Below, piece after piece: positions 13,016 to 61,641 of a stretch of 64,000 bases of DNA; position 1 is the stretch's first letter; the number at the start of each line of letters is the position of its first letter. Location of the stretch: the NCBI RefSeq assembly GCF_013315695.1, contig NZ_CP054353.1. One strand, given 5' to 3'. Position numbers and translations under genes: made by a program. The notes under the pieces were generated by a model that worked only from the letters and a program-made list of their open reading frames with translations, searched no databases and had not been told where the DNA came from. Source of the DNA: Escherichia coli. GTDB taxonomy: Bacteria; Pseudomonadota; Gammaproteobacteria; Enterobacterales; Enterobacteriaceae.

Positions 13016-14109
13016 TCCTGAGCCAGAGAAAGCAGTATTTGCGTAACGCGCCCTGCGGAAAGCGGGGTGCTGTGAGTAAATACTGCTTGTTTATGTAGCC
13101 AGTCGATAAAATGTCTGCTGGTTGCGAAAGAGAGCATTACAGCTTTGCTGTTATTTCCGCCCGTTAATGCACATACCATTTTACGATTTTTGCCCTGAAC
13201 CCAGAGTTGCCACTGATTTTTCCACCAGCCGTGATAAGTTTTTCCCTGAAAACGCCAGGGCGTATTATCGGTATAGTCAGCTATTTCCTCTTCAATAAAC
13301 CAAATTTCACCTTGCTGTTGGCGAAACAGTTCTGCCCAGGCCGTAATAATCGCACCTCTTAAAAAACACTCGTGTGAAATTACATGTGTTTTTACTGTAG
13401 GGAATAAAATATTCAGTACTCTAAAATGCCCGTGCGCTGTGATAACCGGACGCAGAATAACACCTTTAGCATTGCGTTTGAGCGCTGCGCTGCCATACTG
13501 AATTTCATCAAACTGACTGCGGCGTAGAAATTGTGCTTCGCGCATATCAACGCGTTGTACAATATTACTCTCGTGTAACTCTGGTTCTGCATTTCCTCTG
13601 TATCGATAATACAGACTTTCTCCAGCCTGATGCTGCGTGTAATTAGTAGAAAGATGAAGAATATTACCGCGAAGAGCATCAAAACTGATTAAAACATACA
13701 GTTTCTGCCCGCCGCTGGCTCCCTGAAATGGCACCAGAAGAGCAACCGTTTCGATTATTTCAGGAGGCGTTATTTCTTTCTGATATTGTTTAGGTGTCCA
13801 GACTTTTTTGCAGTTACGACATTGAATGCGTTGCGACCCCTGTGGATTGTGGCCATAACAAATCGTCTTTGTGCCATAACATACCGGGCAGAAATGACCT
13901 TTCTCAGTTGCAAAAGTAGATAAGTGAACTGACAACCAGTCACGAAATTGCTGTTCGTCAAACAACGGCGGGTAACTTCCACATGCCCGACAGTGCAGTG
14001 CCGGATAACCCAGTCGATAGTCTGGCCAGCTGTAATCTGTCGAAGTTGGCTGCCCTAAATTACGGCAACCAAACGACTTGCAGGCATTAATCGTAAACAG
14101 AGTCGACAT
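12979..14109 (-). CDS. Hypothetical cysteine-rich (multi zinc-ribbon) protein, accessory; function unknown
   Basis: 376-aa ORF in visibly AT-richer DNA; N-terminal 100 aa carry C-x4-C, C-x2-C, C-x2-C and C-x2-C pairs including CPVC...QRIQCRNCKKVW, which resembles the IS1 InsA / IS1595-type transposase zinc ribbon; no recognisable catalytic motif; 3' end overlaps metL by 37 bp. Confidence 0.55.
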   Translation of the reverse strand: MSTLFTINACKSFGCRNLGQPTSTDYSWPDYRLGYPALHCRACGSYPPLFDEQQFRDWLSVHLSTFATEKGHFCPVCYGTKTICYGHNPQGSQRIQCRNCKKVWTPKQYQKEITPPEIIETVALLVPFQGASGGQKLYVLISFDALRGNILHLSTNYTQHQAGESLYYRYRGNAEPELHESNIVQRVDMREAQFLRRSQFDEIQYGSAALKRNAKGVILRPVITAHGHFRVLNILFPTVKTHVISHECFLRGAIITAWAELFRQQQGEIWFIEEEIADYTDNTPWRFQGKTYHGWWKNQWQLWVQGKNRKMVCALTGGNNSKAVMLSFATSRHFIDWLHKQAVFTHSTPLSAGRVTQILLSLAQDYNNCARRLISD

Positions 14110-14241
14110 ATATCACCAACGATTTCACAAGGTCGTTGATTTTGTCCGGCAACGCTCCCTTGTGGATGTGATTGCTCTCACATAAATAATTCTTTCAGAA
14201 CGTAATGTAGCAATCCTTTATCTCACTGGAAGGGATTGTTT

Positions 14242-15795
14242 ATGAAAATTAAAATGCTTGCTGCGGGTATCGCATTAACACTGCCGTTTTGGGCTTGCGC
14301 CAAAGATGTCACCATCATTTATACCAACGACCTCCATGCACATGTAGAGCCTTATAAAGTGCCGTGGATTGCTGACGGTAAACGAGATATTGGCGGCTGG
14401 GCAAATATCACTACGCTTGTTAAACAAGAAAAAGCTAAAAACAAAGCGACCTGGTTTTTTGATGCGGGTGACTATTTTACCGGGCCGTATATCAGCAGCC
14501 TGACTAAAGGCAAGGCGATTATCGATATTATGAATACCATGCCATTCGATGCGGTCACTATAGGTAATCATGAATTTGATCACGGCTGGGACAATACGTT
14601 ATTACAGTTGAGTCAGGCAAAATTCCCGATTGTGCAGGGTAATGTTTTTTATCAGAACAGCAGTAAATCATTCTGGGATAAGCCCTATACCATCATTGAA
14701 AAAGACGGCGTGAAAATTGGCGTGATTGGTTTGCACGGTGTATTTGCCTTTAATGATACGGTATCTGCGGCAACGCGAGTGGGTATTGAGGCGCGTGATG
14801 AAATTAAATGGCTACAACGTTATATCGATGAACTCAAAGGCAAGGTTGATTTGACCGTTGCGCTGATTCACGAAGGTGTTCCGGCCCGCCAGTCCAGTAT
14901 GGGGGGCACAGATGTGCGCCGCGCACTGGATAAAGATATTCAGACGGCAAGTCAGGTGAAAGGGCTGGATATTTTGATCACCGGGCATGCACATGTGGGT
15001 ACGCCGGAACCGATTAAAGTCGGCAATACGCTCATCCTCTCCACTGACAGCGGTGGGATTGATGTCGGTAAACTGGTACTGGACTACAAAGAGAAGCCGC
15101 ATGATTTTACGGTGAAAAACTTCGAGCTTAAAACCATTTACGCCGACGAGTGGAAGCCCGATCCGCAAACAAAACAGGTGATCGACGGCTGGAATAAAAA
15201 GCTTGATGAAGTGGTGCAACAAACGGTCGCGCAATCGCCGGTTGAATTAAAACGTGCCTATGGTGAATCGGCTTCCCTCGGGAACCTGGCGGCTGATGCT
15301 TTACTGGTAGCGGCGGGTAAAAACACCCAATTGGCGTTAACCAACTCTGGCGGCATTCGCAATGAGATCCCCGCAGGGGCGATTACGATGGGCGGCGTCA
15401 TCAGTACCTTCCCGTTCCCCAACGAACTGGTGACGATGGAACTCACGGGTAAACAATTACGCAGTTTGATGGAACACGGCGCAAGTTTAAGTAATGGCGT
15501 TTTACAGGTATCGAAAGGCCTGGAAATGAAGTACGACAGCAGCAAACCGGTTGGTCAGCGGGTAATCACACTGACTCTGAATGGCAAACCCATTGAAGAT
15601 GCGACAGTTTATTCTATTGCCACCCAGAGTTTCCTTGCTGATGGTGGAGATGGTTTTACCGCCTTTACCGAAGGGAAAGCGCGTAACACAACGGGCGGTT
15701 ATTACGTTTATCACGCCGTGGTTGATTACTTCAAAGCGGGTAACACCATCACGGATGAACAGATCAACGGTATGCGCGTGAAAGATATCAAGTAA
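14242..15795 (+). CDS. Secreted bifunctional metallophosphatase / 5'-nucleotidase (UshA family)
   Basis: ORF 14236..15795; first ATG at 14242 with GGAAGGG RBS 6 nt upstream; signal peptide [20 protein letters not shown]; motifs [27 protein letters not shown] and a C-terminal nucleotide-binding domain ([14 protein letters not shown]). Confidence 0.8.
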
Positions 15796-41732: not shown

Positions 41733-42947
41733 ATGAAAATTATTGCTGCAGATGTTTTTGTTACTTGCCCAGGACGTAATTTCGTTACGCTTAAAATAAC
41801 CACTGCAAGCGGACTTTGTGGATTGGGAGATGCCACATTAAATGGTCGCGAATTGTCGGTCGCTTCTTATCTGAAAGATCATCTTTGTCCACAATTAATT
41901 GGCCGCGATGCCAGCCGTATCGAAGATATCTGGCAATTCTTTTATAAAGGTGCTTACTGGCGACGTGGCCCCGTCACGATGTCGGCCATTTCTGCCATTG
42001 ATATGGCGTTGTGGGATATCAAAGCCAAAGCGGCAAATATGCCATTGTATCAACTGCTTGGTGGTGCTTCTCGTGAAGGCGTGATGGTTTATTGCCACAC
42101 CACCGGGCGCACGATTGATGAAGTCCTTGAAGACTATGCAAAGCACCAGCAGATGGGCTTTAAGGCGATTCGTGTGCAGTGCGGTGTACCGGGTATGCAA
42201 ACCACTTATGGCCTGGCGAAGGGCAAAGGACTGGCGTATGAACCGGCAACCAAAGGCCTGTGGCCGGAAGAGCAGTTGTGGTCTTCAGAAAAGTATCTCG
42301 ATTTTACACCGAAGTTATTTGAAGCGGTGCGTAATAAGTTCGGTTTTAACGAACATCTGTTGCATGACATGCACCATCGCCTGACTCCTATCGAAGCGGC
42401 GCGCTTTGGGAAGAGCATTGAGGATTACCGCCTGTTCTGGATGGAAGATCCGACGCCTGCTGAGAACCAGGAATGTTTTCGTCTGATTCGCCAGCATACT
42501 GTGACGCCGATTGCGGTCGGTGAAGTGTTTAACAGTATCTGGGACTGCAAGCAGTTAATCGAAGAGCAGCTGATTGACTATATTCGCACGACGATTACCC
42601 ATGCAGGCGGCATAACCGGGATGCGACGGATTGCCGATTTTGCATCGCTTTATCAGGTACGTACCGGTTCGCATGGCCCTTCAGATTTATCGCCTGTTTG
42701 TCATGCGGCGGCGCTGCATTTTGACCTCTGGGTGCCAAACTTTGGCGTTCAGGAGTACATGGGCTATTCCGAACAAATGCTTGAAGTCTTCCCGCATAGC
42801 TGGCGCTTCGATGAAGGTTATATGCACCCAGGCGATGAACCGGGGCTGGGTATTTCTTTCGATGAGAAACTGGCGGCGAAATATCCGTATGACCCGGCGT
42901 ATCTCCCCGTCGCACGACTGGAAGATGGCACATTGTGGAACTGGTAA
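41733..42947 (+). CDS. Enolase-superfamily sugar-acid dehydratase, RspA/ManD-like (D-mannonate/altronate dehydratase family), accessory
   Basis: ORF 41673..42947; start at ATG 41733 with AGGAG RBS 9 nt upstream; 404 aa [24 protein letters not shown]... closely resembles RspA as I recall it. Confidence 0.8.
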
Positions 42948-43013
42948 TAACAGTTCGCTTAATTATTTTCTGAATAGTCATCAAATCGATTAATTCCGCT
43001 CAAGGAGCTAAAA

Positions 43014-44297
43014 ATGGACGTTGATGTGTCAACCAGTGTTGCGGGTAATAAACCGCAACGGATTCGTCGTATTCAGACAGTAACGCTGGTTTTATTATTT
43101 ATGGCGGGGATCGTTAATTTCCTCGACCGTTCGTCATTGAGCGTGGCAGGCGAAGCGATTCGTGGCGAGTTAGGATTATCGGCGACAGAATTTGGCGTTT
43201 TGCTTTCTGCATTTTCTCTGTCTTATGGTTTTTCACAACTCCCTTCCGGTATTTTGCTAGACCGCTTTGGCCCACGAATAGTTTTAGGCGCAGGCTTAAT
43301 ATTCTGGTCATTAATGCAGGCATTAACAGGAATGGTTAATTCTTTTAGCCACTTTATTTTAATGCGTATCGGTCTGGGTATTGGCGAAGCGCCATTTATG
43401 CCTGCGGGAGTAAAATCGATCACCGACTGGTATGCGCAAAAAGAACGCGGCACGGCGCTGGGGATTTTTAACTCATCTACCGTTATCGGTCAGGCTATTG
43501 CGCCTCCTGCTCTTGTATTGATGCAGCTGGCATGGGGCTGGCGGGCAATGTTCGTCATCATCGGCGTGGCGGGGATTCTGGTTGGGATCTGTTGGTACGC
43601 GTGGTATCGCAACCGGGCGCAGTTTGTCCTGACCGACGAAGAACGGACCTATCTCTCCGCGCCGGTTAAACCGCGTCCACAATTACAATTTAGCGAGTGG
43701 CTGGCGCTGTTTAAGCATCGGACAACCTGGGGGATGATTTTAGGTTTCTCTGGCGTCAATTATACCGGTTGGCTCTACATCGCGTGGTTACCCGGTTATT
43801 TACAAGCCGAGCAAGGCTTCAGTCTGGCGAAAACCGGTTGGGTGGCGGCGATTCCTTTCCTCGCGGCGGCGGTCGGGATGTGGGTTAACGGTATTGTTGT
43901 CGATCGGCTGGCGAAAAAAGGCTACGACCTGGCGAAGACGCGTAAAACGGCTATTGTCTGCGGTTTGATGATGTCGGCATTAGGCACGTTGCTGGTCGTG
44001 CAATCCTCCTCGCCAGCCCAGGCTGTAGCGTTTATCTCAATGGCGCTGTTCTGCGTGCATTTCGCGGGAACATCTGCATGGGGACTGGTGCAGGTGATGG
44101 TGTCAGAAACAAAAGTGGCTTCCATCGCCGGGATTCAAAACTTTGGCAGTTTTGTTTTTGCTTCCTTTGCTCCGATCGTAACCGGTTGGGTAGTGGATAC
44201 CACGCACTCGTTTAATATGGCGCTGGTTATCGCGGCCTGTGTGACGTTCACCGGGGCGCTGTGTTACTTCTTTATTGTCAAAGATCGGATTGAGTAA
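43014..44297 (+). CDS. MFS transporter, probable hexuronate/aldonate (anion:cation symporter-like) permease, accessory
   Basis: 427-aa ORF with AGGAG RBS; about 12 predicted TM segments; MFS signature region GLGIGEAPFMPAGVKSITDW; 66 bp downstream of the dehydratase. Confidence 0.75.
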   Translation: MDVDVSTSVAGNKPQRIRRIQTVTLVLLFMAGIVNFLDRSSLSVAGEAIRGELGLSATEFGVLLSAFSLSYGFSQLPSGILLDRFGPRIVLGAGLIFWSLMQALTGMVNSFSHFILMRIGLGIGEAPFMPAGVKSITDWYAQKERGTALGIFNSSTVIGQAIAPPALVLMQLAWGWRAMFVIIGVAGILVGICWYAWYRNRAQFVLTDEERTYLSAPVKPRPQLQFSEWLALFKHRTTWGMILGFSGVNYTGWLYIAWLPGYLQAEQGFSLAKTGWVAAIPFLAAAVGMWVNGIVVDRLAKKGYDLAKTRKTAIVCGLMMSALGTLLVVQSSSPAQAVAFISMALFCVHFAGTSAWGLVQVMVSETKVASIAGIQNFGSFVFASFAPIVTGWVVDTTHSFNMALVIAACVTFTGALCYFFIVKDRIE

Positions 44298-44336: not shown

Positions 44337-44453
44337 AAAAAAAAGCGGATCCTGGAGATCCGCAAAAGTTCACGTTGGCTTTAGTTATTCGAGTTGAGAA
44401 ACTCTCGAAACGGGCAGTGACTTCAAGGGTTAAAAGAGGTGCCGCTCCGTTTC
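44337..44453 (-). ncRNA. oxyS: OxyS small regulatory RNA
   Basis: Minus strand reads GAAACGGAGCGGCACCUCUUUUAACCCUUGAAGUCACUGCCCGUUUCGAGAGUUUCUCAACUCGAAUAACUAAAGCCAACGUGAACUUUUGCGGAUCUCCAGGAUCCGCUUUUUUUU, matching the OxyS sequence I recall, divergent from oxyR and ending in a terminator hairpin plus U-run. Confidence 0.85.
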
Positions 44454-48229: not shown

Positions 48230-49330
48230 TTACTTCGCGGTCAGTAATACGCCGCACTCCATATGGTGCGTGTAGGGGAACTGATCAAACAGAGCCAGAC
48301 GTTCAACCTTGTGCGTCTGGCTTAATGTTTCCAGATTCTTGCATAACGTTTCCGGATTGCAGGAGATATACAGAATACGTGGATACGCCTGCACCATTTT
48401 CTCGGTTTCACTGTCCAGACCGCTGCGCGGTGGGTCGACAAAAATGGTTTCGCACTGATAACTCTTCAAGTCGATCCCTTGCAGGCGATGAAACTCGCGC
48501 ACACCATTCATCGCCTGAGTAAATTCTTCTGCCGCCATACGAATAATTTGGACGTTATCAATATGGTTAGCGGCAATGTTGTATTGCGCGGCAGCGACCG
48601 AAGGCTTGGCGATTTCGGTGGCTAATACCCGATCAAAATTGCGCGCCAGGGCTAATGAGAAGTTACCGTTGCCGCAGTACAGCTCCAGTAAATCGCCTTT
48701 TGAGCCTTTGGTGACGTCCAGCGCCCATTCCAGCATCTGAATATTCATCGCCGCGTTCGGTTGGGTAAAGCTGTTTTCTACCTGACGGTAGATCATCTCT
48801 TTCCCTGCGACCGGCAGACGTTCATCGATGTAATCTTGGTCCAGCTCGATTTTGGTTTTCGTTGCCCGACCAATCAGATGCACATTCAGATTCTGCGCGC
48901 GCAGTGCATCGCGCAGGGCTTCCGCTTCCTGACGCCACTCATCATCCAGCTTCTTATGGTACAGCAGGGAAACCACCGCCTGATTACTCAGCGTGGTGAG
49001 GTAATCAATCTGGAACAACTTGTGGCGCAGAACGGGATTATTACGCACACCCGCAATCATCGCCGTCATCAACTGGTTGATAAGTTCACTGGCGGCGGGG
49101 AAGCTATCCACGCGGATGCGGCTTTTGGTTTGTTGATCGAAAATGATGTGGTACAGGTCATCGCCATCGTGCCAGATGCGGAACTCCGCACGCATCCGGT
49201 AATGACTGACCGGCGAGCGAAACACTTCCGGAACCAGGTCAGAAAACGGTGCCATCATACTTTGCAAACGTACCACTTTTTCGGCTAACTGCGCTTCATA
49301 CTGTTCTGTTGGAAGGTGTTCGGGGGTCAT
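48230..49330 (-). CDS. trmA: tRNA (uracil54-C5)-methyltransferase
   Basis: 366-aa [32 protein letters not shown]; RNA m5U methyltransferase family. Confidence 0.93.
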
Positions 49331-49454
49331 GATGTATCCTGAAAAATTAAAGTACGCGGCGATTGTAGGGATTGCTCATCAGATGTCCAGATCTTGATGA
49401 ATTCCTATTTGTGAGCTACGTCTGGACAGTAACTTGTTACAACCTGTAGCATCC

Positions 49455-49698
49455 ACTTGCCGGTCCTGTGAGTTAATAGGGAATCCAGTGCGAATCTGGA
49501 GCTGACGCGCAGCGGTAAGGAAAGGTGCGATGATTGCGTTATGCGGACACTGCCATCCGGTGGGAAGTCATCATCTCTTAGTATCTTAGATACCCCTCCA
49601 AGCCCGAAGACCTGCCGGCTAACGTCGCATCTGGTTCTCATCATCGCGTAATATTGATGAAACCTGCGGCATCCTTCTTCTATTGTGGATGCTTTACA
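49455..49698 (+). ncRNA. Cobalamin (B12) riboswitch in the btuB leader
   Basis: btuB 5' UTR contains gccggtcctgtgagttaatagggaatccagtgcgaatctggagctgacgcgcagcggtaaggaaaggtgcgatgattgcgttatgcggacactgccatccggtgggaagtcatcatctc, recognised as the btuB B12 element; 5' boundary approximate. Confidence 0.85.
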
Positions 49699-51543
49699 AT
49701 GATTAAAAAAGCTTCGCTGCTGACGGCGTGTTCTGTCACAGCCTTTTCTGCTTGGGCACAGGATACCAGCCCGGATACTCTCGTCGTTACTGCTAACCGT
49801 TTTGAACAGCCGCGCAGCACTGTGCTTGCACCAACCACCGTTGTGACCCGTCAGGATATTGACCGCTGGCAGTCGACCTCGGTCAATGATGTGCTGCGCC
49901 GTCTTCCGGGTGTCGATATCACCCAAAACGGCGGTTCAGGTCAGCTCTCATCTATTTTTATTCGCGGTACAAATGCCAGTCATGTGCTGGTGTTAATTGA
50001 TGGCGTCCGCCTGAATCTGGCGGGAGTGAGTGGTTCTGCCGACCTTAGCCAGTTCCCTATTGCGCTTGTCCAGCGTATTGAATATATCCGTGGACCGCGC
50101 TCCGCTGTTTATGGTTCCGATGCAATAGGCGGGGTGGTGAATATCATCACGACGCGCGATGAACCCGGAACGGAAATTTCAGCAGGGTGGGGAAGCAATA
50201 GTTATCAGAACTATGATGTCTCCACGCAGCAACAACTGGGGGATAAGACACGGGTAACGCTGTTGGGCGATTATGCCCATACTCATGGTTATGATGTTGT
50301 TGCCTATGGTAATACCGGAACGCAAGCGCAGACAGATAACGATGGTTTTTTAAGTAAAACGCTTTATGGCGCGCTGGAGCATAACTTTACTGATGCCTGG
50401 AGCGGCTTTGTGCGCGGCTATGGCTATGATAACCGTACCAATTATGACGCGTATTATTCTCCCGGCTCACCGTTGCTCGATACCCGTAAACTCTATAGCC
50501 AAAGTTGGGACGCCGGGCTGCGCTATAACGGCGAACTGATTAAATCACAACTCATTACCAGCTATAGCCATAGCAAAGATTACAACTACGATCCCCATTA
50601 TGGTCGTTATGATTCGTCCGCGACGCTGGATGAGATGAAGCAATACACCGTCCAGTGGGCAAACAATGTCATCGTTGGTCACGGTAGTATTGGTGCGGGT
50701 GTCGACTGGCAGAAACAGACTACGACGCCGGGTACAGGTTATGTTGAGGATGGATATGATCAACGTAATACCGGCATCTATCTGACCGGGCTGCAACAAG
50801 TCGGCGATTTTACCTTTGAAGGCGCAGCACGCAGCGACGATAACTCACAGTTTGGTCGTCATGGAACCTGGCAAACGAGTGCCGGTTGGGAATTCATCGA
50901 AGGCTATCGTTTTATCGCTTCTTATGGCACGTCGTACAAGGCACCTAATCTTGGGCAACTGTATGGTTTCTACGGAAATCCGAATCTGAATCCTGAGAAA
51001 AGCAAACAGTGGGAAGGCGCGTTTGAAGGCTTAACCGCTGGGGTGAACTGGCGTATTTCCGGATATCGTAACGATGTCAGTGATTTGATCGATTATGATG
51101 ATCACACCCTGAAATATTACAACGAAGGGAAAGCGCGGATTAAGGGGGGCGAGGCGACCGCCAATTTTGATACCGGACCACTGACGCATACTGTGAGTTA
51201 TGATTATGTCGATGCGCGTAATGCGATTACCGACGTGCCGTTGTTACGCCGTGCTAAACAGCAGGTGAAATACCAGCTCGACTGGCAATTGTATGACTTC
51301 GACTGGGGTATTACTTATCAGTATTTAGGCACTCGCTATGATAAGGATTACTCATCTTATCCTTATCAAACCGTTAAAATGGGCGGTGTGAGCTTGTGGG
51401 ATCTTGCGGTTGCGTATCCGGTCACCTCTCATCTGACAGTTCGTGGTAAAATAGCCAACCTGTTCGACAAAGATTATGAGACAGTCTATGGCTACCAAAC
51501 TGCAGGACGGGAATACACCTTGTCTGGCAGCTACACCTTCTGA
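49699..51543 (+). CDS. btuB: TonB-dependent vitamin B12 outer membrane transporter
   Basis: ORF 49654..51543; start trimmed to [20 protein letters not shown] (signal peptide) giving 614 aa; TonB box DTLVVTANR; C-terminal Phe. Confidence 0.95.
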
Positions 51544-52345
51544 ACCACGTCCCACCGTGCTGGTGTTTGACTCCGGCGTCGGTGGGTTGTCGGTCTATGA
51601 CGAGATCCGGCATCTCTTACCGGATCTCCATTACATTTATGCTTTCGATAACGTCGCTTTCCCGTATGGCGAAAAAAGCGAAGCGTTTATTGTTGAGCGA
51701 GTGGTGGCAATTGTCACCGCAGTGCAAAAACGTTATCCCCTTGCGCTGGCTGTGGTCGCTTGCAACACTGCCAGTACCGTTTCACTTCCTGCATTACGCG
51801 AAAAGTTCGACTTCCCGGTTGTTGGTGTCGTGCCGGCGATTAAACCTGCTGCACGTCTGACGGCAAATGGCATTGTCGGATTACTGGCAACCCGCGGAAC
51901 AGTTAAACGTTCTTATACTCATGAGCTGATCGCGCGTTTCGCTAATGAATGCCAGATAGAAATGCTGGGCTCGGCAGAGATGGTTGAGTTGGCTGAAGCG
52001 AAGCTGCATGGCGAAGATGTTTCTCTGGATGCGCTAAAACGTATCTTGCGTCCGTGGTTAAGAATGAAAGAGCCGCCAGATACCGTTGTACTGGGGTGTA
52101 CCCATTTCCCTCTACTACAAGAAGAACTGTTACAGGTGCTGCCAGAGGGAACCCGGCTGGTGGATTCTGGCGCAGCGATTGCTCGCCGAACGGCCTGGCT
52201 GTTAGAACATGAAGCCCCGGATGCAAAATCTGCCGATGCGAATATTGCCTTTTGTATGGCAATGACGCCAGAAGCTGAACAATTATTGCCCGTTTTACAG
52301 CGTTACGGCTTCGAAACGCTCGAAAAACTGGCAGTTTTAGGCTGA
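51488..52345 (+). CDS. murI: Glutamate racemase
   Basis: ORF 51476..52345; start placed at [20 protein letters not shown] giving 285 aa; overlaps btuB 3' end by 56 bp. Confidence 0.9.
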
Positions 52346-52390
52346 TTTGGTTGAATGTTGCGCGGTCAGAAAATTATTTTAAATTTCCTC

Positions 52391-52537
52391 TTGTCAGGCC
52401 GGAATAACTCCCTATAATGCGCCACCACTGACACGGAACAACGGCAAACACGCCGCCGGGTCAGCGGGGTTCTCCTGAGAATTCCGGCAGAGAAAGCAAA
52501 AATAAATGCTTGACTCTGTAGCGGGAAAGCGTATTAT
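52391..52537 (+). promoter_or_regulatory. rrnB-type tandem promoters P1 and P2
   Basis: P1 -35 ttgtca (52391..52396) and -10 tataat (52413..52418) with 16-bp spacer; P2 -35 ttgact (52510..52515) and -10 tattat (52532..52537). Confidence 0.85.
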
Positions 52538-52718: not shown

Positions 52719-54260
<1,542 letters not shown>

Positions 54261-54345
54261 CCTTAAAGAAGCGTACTTTGAAGTGCTCACACAGATTGTC
54301 TGATAGAAAGTGAAAAGCAAGGCGTCTTGCGAAGCAGACTGATAC

Positions 54346-54421
54346 GTCCCCTTCGTCTAGAGGCCCAGGACACCGCCCTTTCACGGCGGTAACAGGGGTT
54401 CGAATCCCCTAGGGGACGCCA
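54346..54421 (+). tRNA. gltT: tRNA-Glu (anticodon UUC) in the 16S–23S spacer
   Basis: gtccccttcgtctagaggcccaggacaccgccctttcacggcggtaacaggggttcgaatcccctaggggacgcca; cloverleaf with TTC anticodon. Confidence 0.95.
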
Positions 54422-54615
54422 CTTGCTGGTTTGTGAGTGAAAGTCACCGACCTTAATATCGTTAAAGATGACTTACGAGTCATGTTTAAGATATTTGCTC
54501 TTTAAAAATCTGGATCAAGCTGAAAATTGAAACACTGAACAACGAAAGTTGTTCGTGAGTCTCTCAAATTTTCGCAACACGATGATGAGTCGAAAGAAAC
54601 ATCTTCGGGTTGTGA

Positions 54616-57519
<2,904 letters not shown>

Positions 57520-57613
57520 ACAACGCCGAAGATGTTTTGGCGGAAGAGACATCGATAAGTAAGCTTGATAACAGATTAAATCAGAACGCAGAAGTGGTCT
57601 GATAAACAGAATT

Positions 57614-57733
57614 TGCCTGGCGGCCTTAGCGCGGTGGTCCCACCTGACCCCATGCCGAACTCAGAAGTGAAACGCCGTAGCGCCGATGGTAGTGTGGGGT
57701 CTCCCCATGCGAGAGTAGGGAACTGCCAGGCAT
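57614..57733 (+). rRNA. rrfB: 5S ribosomal RNA
   Basis: tgcctggcggcc...gggaactgccaggcat; 120 nt. Confidence 0.97.
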
Positions 57734-61199: not shown

Positions 61200-61275
<76 letters not shown>

Positions 61276-61283
61276 TCAAGTCC

Positions 61284-61368
<85 letters not shown>

Positions 61369-61484
61369 ATTTCGGCCACGCGATGGCGTAGCCCGAGACG
61401 ATAAGTTCGCTTACCGGCTCGAATAAAGAGAGCTTCTCTCGATATTCAGTGCAGAATGAAAATCAGGTAGCCGAGTTCCAGGAT

Positions 61485-61559
<75 letters not shown>

Positions 61560-61565
61560 AGATGT

Positions 61566-61641
61566 GCTGATATAGCTCAGTTGGTAGAGCGCACCCTTGG
61601 TAAGGGTGAGGTCGGCAGTTCGAATCTGCCTATCAGCACCA
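61566..61641 (+). tRNA. thrT: tRNA-Thr (anticodon GGU)
   Basis: gctgatatagctcagttggtagagcgcacccttggtaagggtgaggtcggcagttcgaatctgcctatcagcacca. Confidence 0.95.

Follow-up and report, generated by a model that had tools for sequence, protein, structure and literature searches.

The btuB–murI locus of Escherichia coli raises the question of how murI, an essential cell-wall gene, is expressed when its first codons lie within btuB, the vitamin B12 receptor gene, which is preceded by a cobalamin riboswitch, and which of the two genes is constrained by this arrangement. The window analysed here is a stretch of 64,000 nucleotides from an E. coli genome (contig NZ_CP054353.1); positions refer to the window, and seven-digit positions to strain K-12. 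Both the riboswitch leader and the overlap are already well known, the latter being cited in the literature to explain why the Keio collection lacks btuB, and the observation as first made, of an undamaged textbook locus, matters little in itself. Taken as a whole, the model of an intact and canonical E. coli btuB–murI locus, with its riboswitch, its coding overlap and a murI promoter of its own, has in our estimation a probability of about 0.92. The coding features are as follows:

49699–51543, plus strand: btuB coding sequence, 614 aa, from ATG 49699 (MIKKASLL...) to the TGA at 51541–51543
51488–52345, plus strand: murI coding sequence, a 285-aa glutamate racemase, from ATG 51488, with the conserved core starting at residue 24
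51488–51543, plus strand: btuB–murI coding overlap, 56 nt, murI being in the +2 frame of btuB (BtuB residues 597–614, MurI residues 1–19)

The BtuB product comprises a signal peptide (residues 1–20), a TonB box (DTLVVTA, 26–32), a plug (41–146) and a β-barrel (183–588). It scores 1107 bits against the NCBIfam equivalog NF007926 (cut-off 836) and 898 bits against TIGR01779 (cut-off 600), matches both PF07715 (plug) and PF00593 (barrel) of Pfam, and aligns with PDB 1NQE over residues 21–614; the plug, the 22-strand-barrel signature, the TonB box and the C-terminal Phe are all held in common with TonB-dependent transporters of the 1NQE type. Four amino acids differ from K-12 (V127I, D431N, V484G and T513V), and the nucleotide differences from K-12 btuB cluster at nucleotides 1200–1400 of the ORF, which suggests a recombined patch. 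MurI scores 515 bits against the NCBIfam equivalog NF002034 (cut-off 408), with the alignment starting at residue 24, and is identical at 283/285 residues to E. coli MurI in PDB 2JFN, a 285-aa construct whose length follows the annotation. It differs from the K-12 protein by E81K and G262E, and its two catalytic residues, Cys92 and Cys204, do not vary among 109 homologues.

Four regulatory features lie upstream of btuB:

49423–49452, plus strand: btuB promoter-like site from a consensus scan, with -35 TGGACA (49423–49428), an 18-nt spacer and -10 TAGCAT (49447–49452)
49444–49633, plus strand: cobalamin (AdoCbl) riboswitch aptamer, matching Rfam RF00174
49459–49698, plus strand: btuB 5′ leader of 240 nt (aptamer and expression platform), from the start site to ATG 49699
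49634–49698, plus strand: expression platform, with a hairpin at 49634–49663 followed by one at 49668–49693 (fold of 49634–49715)

The first-pass annotation had recognised a cobalamin riboswitch in this leader, and the covariance model agrees, with a score of 87.8 bits (E 2e-22) against a gathering score of 31.5 bits and with model positions 1–189 of 189 matched, so that the aptamer is not truncated; a match of this quality is far beyond chance. The match lies in the 5′ UTR, 66 nt 5′ of btuB on the same strand, and a B12-box-like core, AAGCCCGAAGACCUGCCGGC (49600–49619), is aligned with high posterior probability to the consensus AGCCAGGAGACCuGCC. In a 100%-identical strain, RefSeq places the riboswitch at the same coordinates, and a riboswitch is found upstream of btuB in 13/14 tested species of Enterobacterales, the exception having just a btuB remnant. 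Minimum free energy folding of the whole 272-nt leader (z -0.18) is no better than that of shuffled sequence and is uninformative, so that it is the covariance model which supports the leader structure. In K-12, the published start site of btuB (4163398) corresponds to 49458, 6 nt 3′ of the end of the -10 element. The leader thus begins at 49458/49459, the G of GCCGGUCC, with the -10-like TAGCAT ending at 49452; with the btuB ATG at 49699, the leader has the 240 nt of the first-pass estimate, whilst the first-pass start at 49455 has to be moved.

In a pairwise comparison, 238/240 leader positions are equal to those of K-12; one difference lies in a loop (49557, C/T) and one just 3′ of P1 (49620, T/C), both unpaired, and the expression platform has none. 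The leader shares its genomic position with the K-12 leader and RF00174, and the early-ORF pairing regions are identical; the two single-base variants, together with four synonymous changes at ORF +36 to +51, affect no paired or conserved position. With an overlap free of differences from K-12 and both proteins above their equivalog cut-offs, the first-pass view of the arrangement as canonical and intact is well founded. A mechanism in which the Shine-Dalgarno sequence is sequestered has been described for the K-12 btuB leader (PMC11162775), and here the 3′ arm (GGAUGCU) of hairpin 49668–49693 carries a Shine-Dalgarno-like GGAUG, 6–10 nt before the AUG. From the 238/240 identity to the characterised K-12 leader (PMC11162775), we infer that this leader binds AdoCbl and represses expression.

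Two further elements, located in the early btuB ORF, bear on the fate of the transcript:

49715–49739, plus strand: attenuator-like hairpin CGCUGCUGACGGCG with a U-rich tail, from a terminator-like scan match
49779–49908, plus strand: region of Rho-dependent termination, btuB ORF +81 to +210, with coordinates transferred from K-12 (PMC11162775)

An attenuator at +18 to +48 has been mentioned (PMC11162775), and a K-12 Term-seq 3′ end at 4163679 maps to 49739, at the early-ORF hairpin; the K-12 Term-seq 3′ ends in the btuB leader and at +40 agree with the predicted hairpin. In K-12, Rho-dependent termination comes after riboswitch-mediated translational repression (PMC11162775), and the corresponding region of the window has a single difference from K-12, a synonymous one at 49860. 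Thus btuB is transcribed from a sigma-70-type promoter into the 240-nt riboswitch leader. On the strength of the near-identity of this leader to that of K-12, AdoCbl binding would hide the Shine-Dalgarno sequence in a hairpin and leave btuB untranslated, and the attenuator and Rho would end the untranslated mRNA early, before it extends past the initial ~210 nt of the ORF.

Whether this shut-off could reach murI depends firstly on where murI begins. The overlap has the same coordinates in K-12 (4165428–4165483; b3966/b3967) and in RefSeq, and start, stop, frame relation and overlap length all equal those of K-12, which bears out the first-pass placement of the murI start at 51488, inside btuB (stop at 51543), and the 56-bp overlap that follows from it. 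In a sample of 76 Enterobacterales loci from 75 related species (Yersinia, Serratia, Proteus, Hafnia, Edwardsiella and Budviciaceae lie outside it), the distance from an in-frame ATG to the end of btuB is exactly 56 nt at 76/76 loci; since its position is common to all of them, chance cannot account for the overlapping ORF. The spacer that follows the btuB stop is 23, 29, 35 or 38 nt, with the frame always kept.

Were murI to begin at GTG 51557 or 51563, beyond the btuB stop, there would be no functional coding overlap, and several observations are in line with such a start: GTG 51557 encodes residue 24, where the profiles of the MurI family set in; MurI residues 1–16 are predicted to be disordered; MurI outside Enterobacterales begins 8–11 codons before the motif; and K-12 TraDIS data show that the overlap tolerates transposon insertions. 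The insertions are, however, biased ~10-fold in orientation, consistent with expression driven from the transposon, and neither GTG is preceded by a purine-rich Shine-Dalgarno sequence. The downstream start is also at odds with the invariance of the ATG at 56 nt, with a frame from that ATG to the core which stays open despite indels of 6, 12 and 15 nt, and with ten species in which this ATG is the only in-frame start before the core (no GTG, TTG or ATG intervening). Moreover, an SD-like GAG and the codon for Ala2 are frozen against btuB codon drift, and lineages that lack btuB retain an ORF from the same ATG. We consider a downstream start very improbable.

Initiation at ATG 51476, four codons ahead of ATG 51488 (MRQSMATK..., 289 aa, 68-nt overlap), is hardly credible: although a longest-ORF reading of the window begins there, this ATG exists only where btuB uses TAT for the Tyr in question, as in 10 species against 64 with TAC, and it is consequently missing even in E. 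albertii (L004); SD-like sequence is absent upstream of it, and both K-12 and RefSeq annotate 285 aa. Both ATG 51476 and GTG 51557/51563 were accordingly rejected on comparative grounds, leaving ATG 51488 as the most probable murI start. Compared with MurI outside Enterobacterales, the E. coli protein has ~23 extra N-terminal residues, variable and predicted to be disordered, on which the literature reviews on MurI are silent. The first 19, encoded within btuB, fall outside the family profile and the racemase core and may be dispensable, given that TraDIS insertions are tolerated and that the profile starts at residue 24.

The ribosome-binding signal of murI likewise falls within btuB:

51478–51480, plus strand: Shine-Dalgarno-like GAG (a btuB Glu codon), 7 nt before the murI ATG

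This is a weak Shine-Dalgarno sequence, comprising GAG only. The Glu codon is GAG in 75/75 species, compared with GAA in 54 and GAG in 19 at another btuB Glu codon, and the neighbouring wobble positions are similarly fixed, with the Tyr codon that provides the murI ATG being TAT in 75/75 and a Gly codon GGC in 73/75. Third-position entropy is near zero at 9/257 conserved degenerate btuB codons, and 8 of these 9 lie within the last 42 codons. Third-position entropy averages 0.72 over the overlap and 0.86 over a stretch of 26 codons 5′ of it (-45 to -20), and the first and second codon positions of btuB are slightly more variable inside the overlap. The overlap as a whole, by this comparison of sequences, is not unusually constrained; the apparent constraint is at a few sites and not across the 56 nt. 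It is also asymmetric, the frozen positions being btuB synonymous sites that supply murI with the SD-like GAG, the start codon ATG and codon 2. Of the two constraints proposed for the overlap, that on btuB is thus upheld, through its frozen synonymous sites, and that on MurI is not, as the overlap encodes a variable extension of MurI, predicted to be disordered, outside the core.

The constraint extends ~45 nt 5′ of the overlap, where it reaches a candidate promoter for murI:

51444–51452, plus strand: candidate murI promoter, extended -10 TGgTAAAAT (TG at 51444–45, then G, then TAAAAT at 51447–52), in btuB codons 581–585
51460, plus strand: murI transcription start, K-12 4165400 (SMRT-Cappable-seq, Supplementary Data 1), 8 nt 3′ of the -10 element

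The element TG-n-TA[A/G]AAT is invariant in 74/74 species, one A/G position excepted, and displays the strongest synonymous-site conservation in the whole of btuB. It has the TGn and the near-TATAAT hexamer of an extended -10 sigma-70 promoter, with a primary 5′ end downstream, and is predicted to be active. In K-12, SMRT-Cappable-seq reports a transcript from 4165400 to 4166543 (121 reads) which covers only b3967 and has C as its mapped start base. The Cappable-seq and Kim 2012 tables have no entries at the coordinates of the murI start or of the btuB 3′ end; a single long-read dataset, modest in depth, is the source of both positions. Where btuB has been lost, in Tatumella, two Erwinia lineages and a Pantoea symbiont, the extended -10 and the murI ATG are retained, and so, except in L102, is a GAGAC motif. 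The candidate escapes a consensus promoter scan, since such a scan depends on a -35 match; the one intragenic site that the scan does return, at 51315–51342, is at chance level and not conserved, and was dropped.

The same wobble conservation (51439–51452) might reflect constraint on the BtuB protein combined with codon preference (GTT, CGT, GGT), with no promoter involved. The element does encode a conserved BtuB motif, V-R-G-[KR]-I, it is unlisted by the simple promoter scan, and the pattern by itself is at chance frequency (TGNTARAAT occurs 2 times in the 64-kb window, with 3.4 expected). However, no other stretch of conserved residues in btuB is so invariant at the wobble positions, the element survives where the btuB frame has been destroyed or deleted, and a primary 5′ end lies 8 nt downstream; an explanation from protein and codon usage is quite unlikely. 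A predicted promoter of murI's own, located in btuB and independent of the btuB promoter, is strongly supported. Our literature search found no paper explicitly describing it, nor one stating the fuller reading of the junction given below, although curated databases (RegulonDB, EcoCyc) may already list the promoter.

The btuB transcript appears, in turn, to end within murI, close to the following structure:

51602–51628, plus strand: conserved 9-bp hairpin GAGAUCCGG/CCGGAUCUC in murI, codons 39–47 (fold z -2.88)

Across the alignment 88.9% of cells are paired at this hairpin, compared with 20–57% when it is slid, and 22 cells have double changes against 9.4 ± 2.2. In the K-12 long reads, btuB transcripts run from 4163398 to 4165572 (window 51632), with this 3′ end in 10/21 reads; at this low depth, 0/21 transcripts from the btuB promoter pass 4165572. 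The Term-seq tables list 3′ ends in the btuB leader and early ORF and have no entry at 4165572.

These data bear directly on whether btuB and murI form a single operon transcribed from the btuB promoter, with murI under the joint control of the B12 riboswitch and with translational coupling as the role of the overlap. Such an operon is suggested by two adjacent, overlapping genes on the same strand, and a 'btuB-murI operon' has been named in work in which its transcript rose ~300-fold after promoter and RBS mutations (PMC10802341). Against this, none of the 21 long reads extends beyond the murI-internal 3′ end, whilst murI has its separate transcript, and the conserved internal promoter outlasts the loss of both btuB and the riboswitch. 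Under an operon, B12 would shut off essential murI through Rho termination early in btuB. In the TraDIS study, a strain lacking the initial ~1000 bp of btuB, start codon included, was viable. We therefore regard a single B12-controlled operon as unlikely. Rather, as murI has a predicted promoter of its own and btuB transcripts end at the hairpin in murI, murI is probably insulated from B12 repression and not co-regulated in an operon; with a separate murI start and a btuB mRNA ending in murI, the two genes would be interlocked, largely separate transcription units.

The model that emerges is one in which murI transcription would start at ~51460, from the extended -10 (51444–51452) in the final ~100 nt of btuB, and transcripts from the btuB promoter would mostly end at the conserved hairpin, ~115 nt inside murI. 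On this model, the 3′ end of btuB would double as the murI promoter, RBS and start codon and as a disordered, dispensable-looking N-terminal tail. In its fullest form, this reading takes the junction to be a pair of deeply conserved, interlocked transcription units, in which btuB synonymous sites hold murI signals and btuB mRNA ends at the covarying hairpin at 51602–51628, the joint effect being to insulate essential murI from B12/Rho shut-off; on this stronger statement our judgement is evenly divided. If correct, it explains the 60–150-nt stump of btuB kept by lineages that have discarded the rest of the gene.

There are practical implications. Engineering of btuB, be it knock-outs for phage or colicin resistance or deletions of the Keio style, should spare approximately the last 110 nt of the gene and not just the 56 nt of the overlap, because essential murI would otherwise lose its promoter. 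Nor should murI be assumed to be B12-regulated on the basis of a 'btuB-murI operon' annotation.

Promoters internal to ORFs form a general class, in which the promoter is embedded in the coding sequence of the upstream gene. The extended -10 in btuB, with a mapped primary 5′ end and apparent selection on synonymous sites, resembles this class, and is a clean case in which an embedded promoter, RBS and start codon freeze synonymous sites of the host gene across a bacterial order; as such, the locus may be useful as a positive control for methods that seek hidden functional elements in coding sequences. It departs from the general class in two respects: here the candidate promoter, the SD-like sequence, the start codon and the first 19 codons of the downstream gene all lie within the upstream gene, and the mRNA of the upstream gene appears to end within the downstream one.

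The first-pass annotation described btuB with a cobalamin riboswitch leader and a 56-nt overlap with murI; the features located here are as follows.

49423–49452, + strand: promoter-like pair of btuB (-35 TGGACA, 18 nt, -10 TAGCAT)
49444–49633, + strand: cobalamin riboswitch RF00174 (Rfam model; 87.8 bits against a gathering score of 31.5, whole model)
49634–49663, + strand: expression-platform hairpin 1 (folding)
49668–49693, + strand: expression-platform hairpin 2 (folding), whose 3′ arm holds a Shine–Dalgarno-like GGAUG
49699–51543, + strand: btuB, ATG 49699 to TGA 51541–51543, 614 aa (ORF list and sequence)
51488–52345, + strand: murI, ATG 51488, 285 aa (ORF list and sequence)

The riboswitch and both genes occupy exactly the same positions in the PGAP annotation of an identical strain. 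The DNA is chromosomal E. coli sequence, and window 49300–52400 is 100% identical to several RefSeq genomes (for example NZ_LR898874, whose strain shows 99.98% identity over bases 624–64000). The Rfam match confirms the riboswitch leader, and the overlap is confirmed by the reading frames, by PGAP and by K-12 MG1655, where btuB (4163639–4165483) and murI (4165428–4166285) share the same 56 nt. The leader begins at 49458/49459, in agreement with the published K-12 start site (4163398, window 49458), and is therefore 240 nt long as proposed, although its start had been placed 3–4 nt early, at 49455.

Alignment with K-12 bears out the intact, canonical arrangement. There are 57 differences across 3015 nt, of which only two lie in the leader, at 49557 (within the loop of a hairpin) and 49620 (just 3′ of helix P1), and none in the expression platform or the overlap; within the btuB ORF, +36 to +51 carries four synonymous changes and +60 to +110 is identical. 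Four BtuB and two MurI residues are changed, and both proteins pass their NCBIfam equivalog cut-offs (BtuB 1107 against 836, MurI 515 against 408), contain the expected Pfam domains and are nearly identical to solved structures (1NQE and 2JFN, respectively). Seventeen of the 42 btuB differences fall in one 200-nt bin at window ~50899–51098 (btuB nt 1200–1400, around D431N), which looks like a small recombined patch.

In K-12, AdoCbl binding sequesters the Shine–Dalgarno region and blocks translation initiation, whereupon Rho ends transcription between +81 and +210 of the btuB ORF; an attenuator at +18 to +48 has also been proposed, and OmrA and OmrB act independently (PMC11162775). We infer, from its identity to K-12, that the same mechanism would operate in the window's leader. 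Free-energy folding of the whole leader was no better than that of shuffles; the structure is therefore claimed on the strength of the covariance model. A scan located a terminator-like hairpin with a U-rich tail at 49715–49728, adjoining a published K-12 Term-seq 3′ end (4163679; window 49739, +40 of the btuB ORF). A second such end falls within the leader, where the aptamer finishes (window 49624). Both fit early termination of transcripts in the leader and the first part of the ORF.

A pattern scan for a MurI motif in one genome per species, an arbitrary sample, returned at least 120 loci; among the matches listed, btuB lies directly upstream of murI in 75 Enterobacterales species (Enterobacteriaceae, Erwiniaceae, Pectobacteriaceae, Rahnella, Enterobacillus and others). 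In each of the 75, as in the window, an ATG in frame with murI precedes the final base of the btuB stop by exactly 56 nt. The distance from that stop to the conserved MurI core is 23, 29, 35 or 38 nt, and because the differences are always multiples of three, the frame from this ATG is preserved. Translation could instead begin downstream of the btuB stop, at GTG 51557 or 51563, or upstream at ATG 51476. MurI matches outside the Enterobacterales (Erythrobacter, Psychromonas and others), which have no btuB neighbour, start 8–11 codons before the motif; ten of the btuB-linked species contain no other ATG, GTG or TTG between the 56-nt ATG and the core. ATG 51476 lacks conservation: 64 species have TAC and 10 have TAT at the btuB tyrosine codon from which it arises. 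These other starts are thus unlikely, and the conserved ATG, the kept frame and the ten species strongly support a murI start inside btuB. A cobalamin riboswitch precedes btuB at 13 of 14 tested loci.

The suggestion that the overlap constrains both genes holds only in part. On the MurI side, NCBIfam profiles align from residue 24, 14 nt past the btuB stop, the sequence of the N-terminal extension varies widely between families, and an AlphaFold model (109 homologues) gives pLDDT <50 for residues 1–16 and places its first secondary structure no earlier than residue 21. A TraDIS preprint reports that K-12 tolerates transposon insertions inside the overlap, with an orientation bias. For btuB the constraint is sharp, but confined to a few sites. 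The tyrosine codon that supplies the murI ATG is TAT in 75/75 species and the following glycine codon GGC in 73/75, which fixes MurI residue 2 as alanine; the glutamate codon 7 nt upstream of the ATG is GAG in every species (75/75) and would act as a Shine–Dalgarno-like element, whereas neighbouring tyrosine and glutamate codons drift freely. Mean third-position entropy over the 56 nt is 0.72, little below the 0.86 just upstream.

Across 56 full-length btuB genes, third-position entropy averages 1.19 over 257 conserved degenerate codons; only nine are near zero, eight of them in the last 42 btuB codons, and the lowest five-codon windows all lie at residues ~578–586. Here the sequence GTTCGTGGTA[A/G]AAT (window 51439–51452), invariant in 74/74 except at the A/G position, reads as a candidate extended -10 promoter, TG-n-TAAAAT (TGgTAAAAT). 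By window count the TG-n-TA[A/G]AAT pattern is in itself not rarer than chance, so the case rests on synonymous-site conservation, natural deletions and published transcripts. Six lineages in the survey lack an intact btuB: three Tatumella (loci L031, L046, L074), Erwinia sp. OLFS4 (L100, where no riboswitch was found), an Erwinia MAG (L102) and a Pantoea stink-bug symbiont (L015). What is left of the btuB 3′ end, a stump of 60–150 nt, keeps TG-n(1-2)-TA[A/G]AAT and the murI ATG, and all except the Erwinia MAG keep GAGAC; in Tatumella the stump adjoins trmA-side intergenic sequence. Fragmented btuB matches at four further loci (L054, L110, L082, L067) are possible pseudogenes.

SMRT-Cappable-seq of K-12 recorded a murI-only transcript (4165400–4166543) with 121 reads at its start site (PMC6131387, Supplementary Data 1), which corresponds to window 51460, 8 nt after the candidate -10. 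For the btuB transcript (4163398–4165572) there are 21 reads; 10 stop at 4165572 and none continues past it (PMC6131387). Taken together, the synonymous sites, the stumps and the K-12 transcripts indicate that murI transcription most likely does not depend on the riboswitch-controlled btuB promoter and that the gene appears to have its own, with some read-through possible given the low long-read depth. Independent transcription would be expected of an essential gene whose upstream neighbour is repressed by B12 and terminated by Rho. The pair is still termed an operon in a recent paper (PMC10802341).

The published btuB mRNA 3′ end (window 51632), which is not among the ends listed in one K-12 Term-seq dataset, lies 4 nt past a perfect 9-bp hairpin, GAGAUCCGG/CCGGAUCUC, at 51602–51628 (murI codons 39–47; dG -15.2, z -2.88), which may serve as a terminator or stabiliser of btuB mRNA. 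In the 75 species, canonical pairs fill 88.9% of pair cells, a share that drops to 20–57% when the partner is slid, and 22 cells carry double changes against 9.4 ± 2.2 in shuffles, including Ile/Val (A/G) covarying with synonymous Asp GAT/GAC; the normally rare Arg codon CGG is retained. Since the structure derives from one aligned sequence and sits in conserved coding sequence, this covariation is supportive, not conclusive.

Among 5425 complete E. coli genomes, about 465 have a btuB allele that is deeply divergent (nucleotide identity 80–90%, or an alignable share of only ~47% in megablast) and keep the riboswitch–btuB–murI arrangement; at survey locus L027:6303-9303, labelled E. coli, BtuB is only 57% identical to the window's and the junction is identical. 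Such alleles suggest that recombination within btuB has replaced one allele by another, with pressure from phages or colicins a plausible cause. Elsewhere in the window, two accessory islets, which about one third of the complete E. coli genomes carry, hold manD and an MFS transporter (41733–44297, between argH and oxyR) and a 5′-nucleotidase/metallophosphatase with a hypothetical gene (12979–15795, between metL and metF). The 99.98%-identical strain MSB1_4I diverges at 1–623 because an ISEcp1 insertion, unmatched in the window, truncates menA there. Surrounding RNA genes (Rfam) are:

44344–44453, - strand: OxyS sRNA
52719–57731, + strand: rrnB operon (16S, tRNA-Glu, 23S, 5S), directly downstream of murI
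61200–61638, + strand: thrU-tyrU-glyT-thrT tRNA cluster, before tufB

As textbook features of K-12, the riboswitch, both genes and the 56-nt overlap make this a known and ordinary finding; the lack of btuB in the Keio collection is acknowledged to stem from the overlap. The real source of the constraint is the embedded murI promoter (a candidate), ribosome-binding site and start. A literature search, with RegulonDB and EcoCyc outside its scope, found no paper stating the additions made here; the order-wide 56-nt invariance, these embedded signals, the btuB stumps and the mRNA-end hairpin are refinements of modest interest to the known K-12 arrangement.
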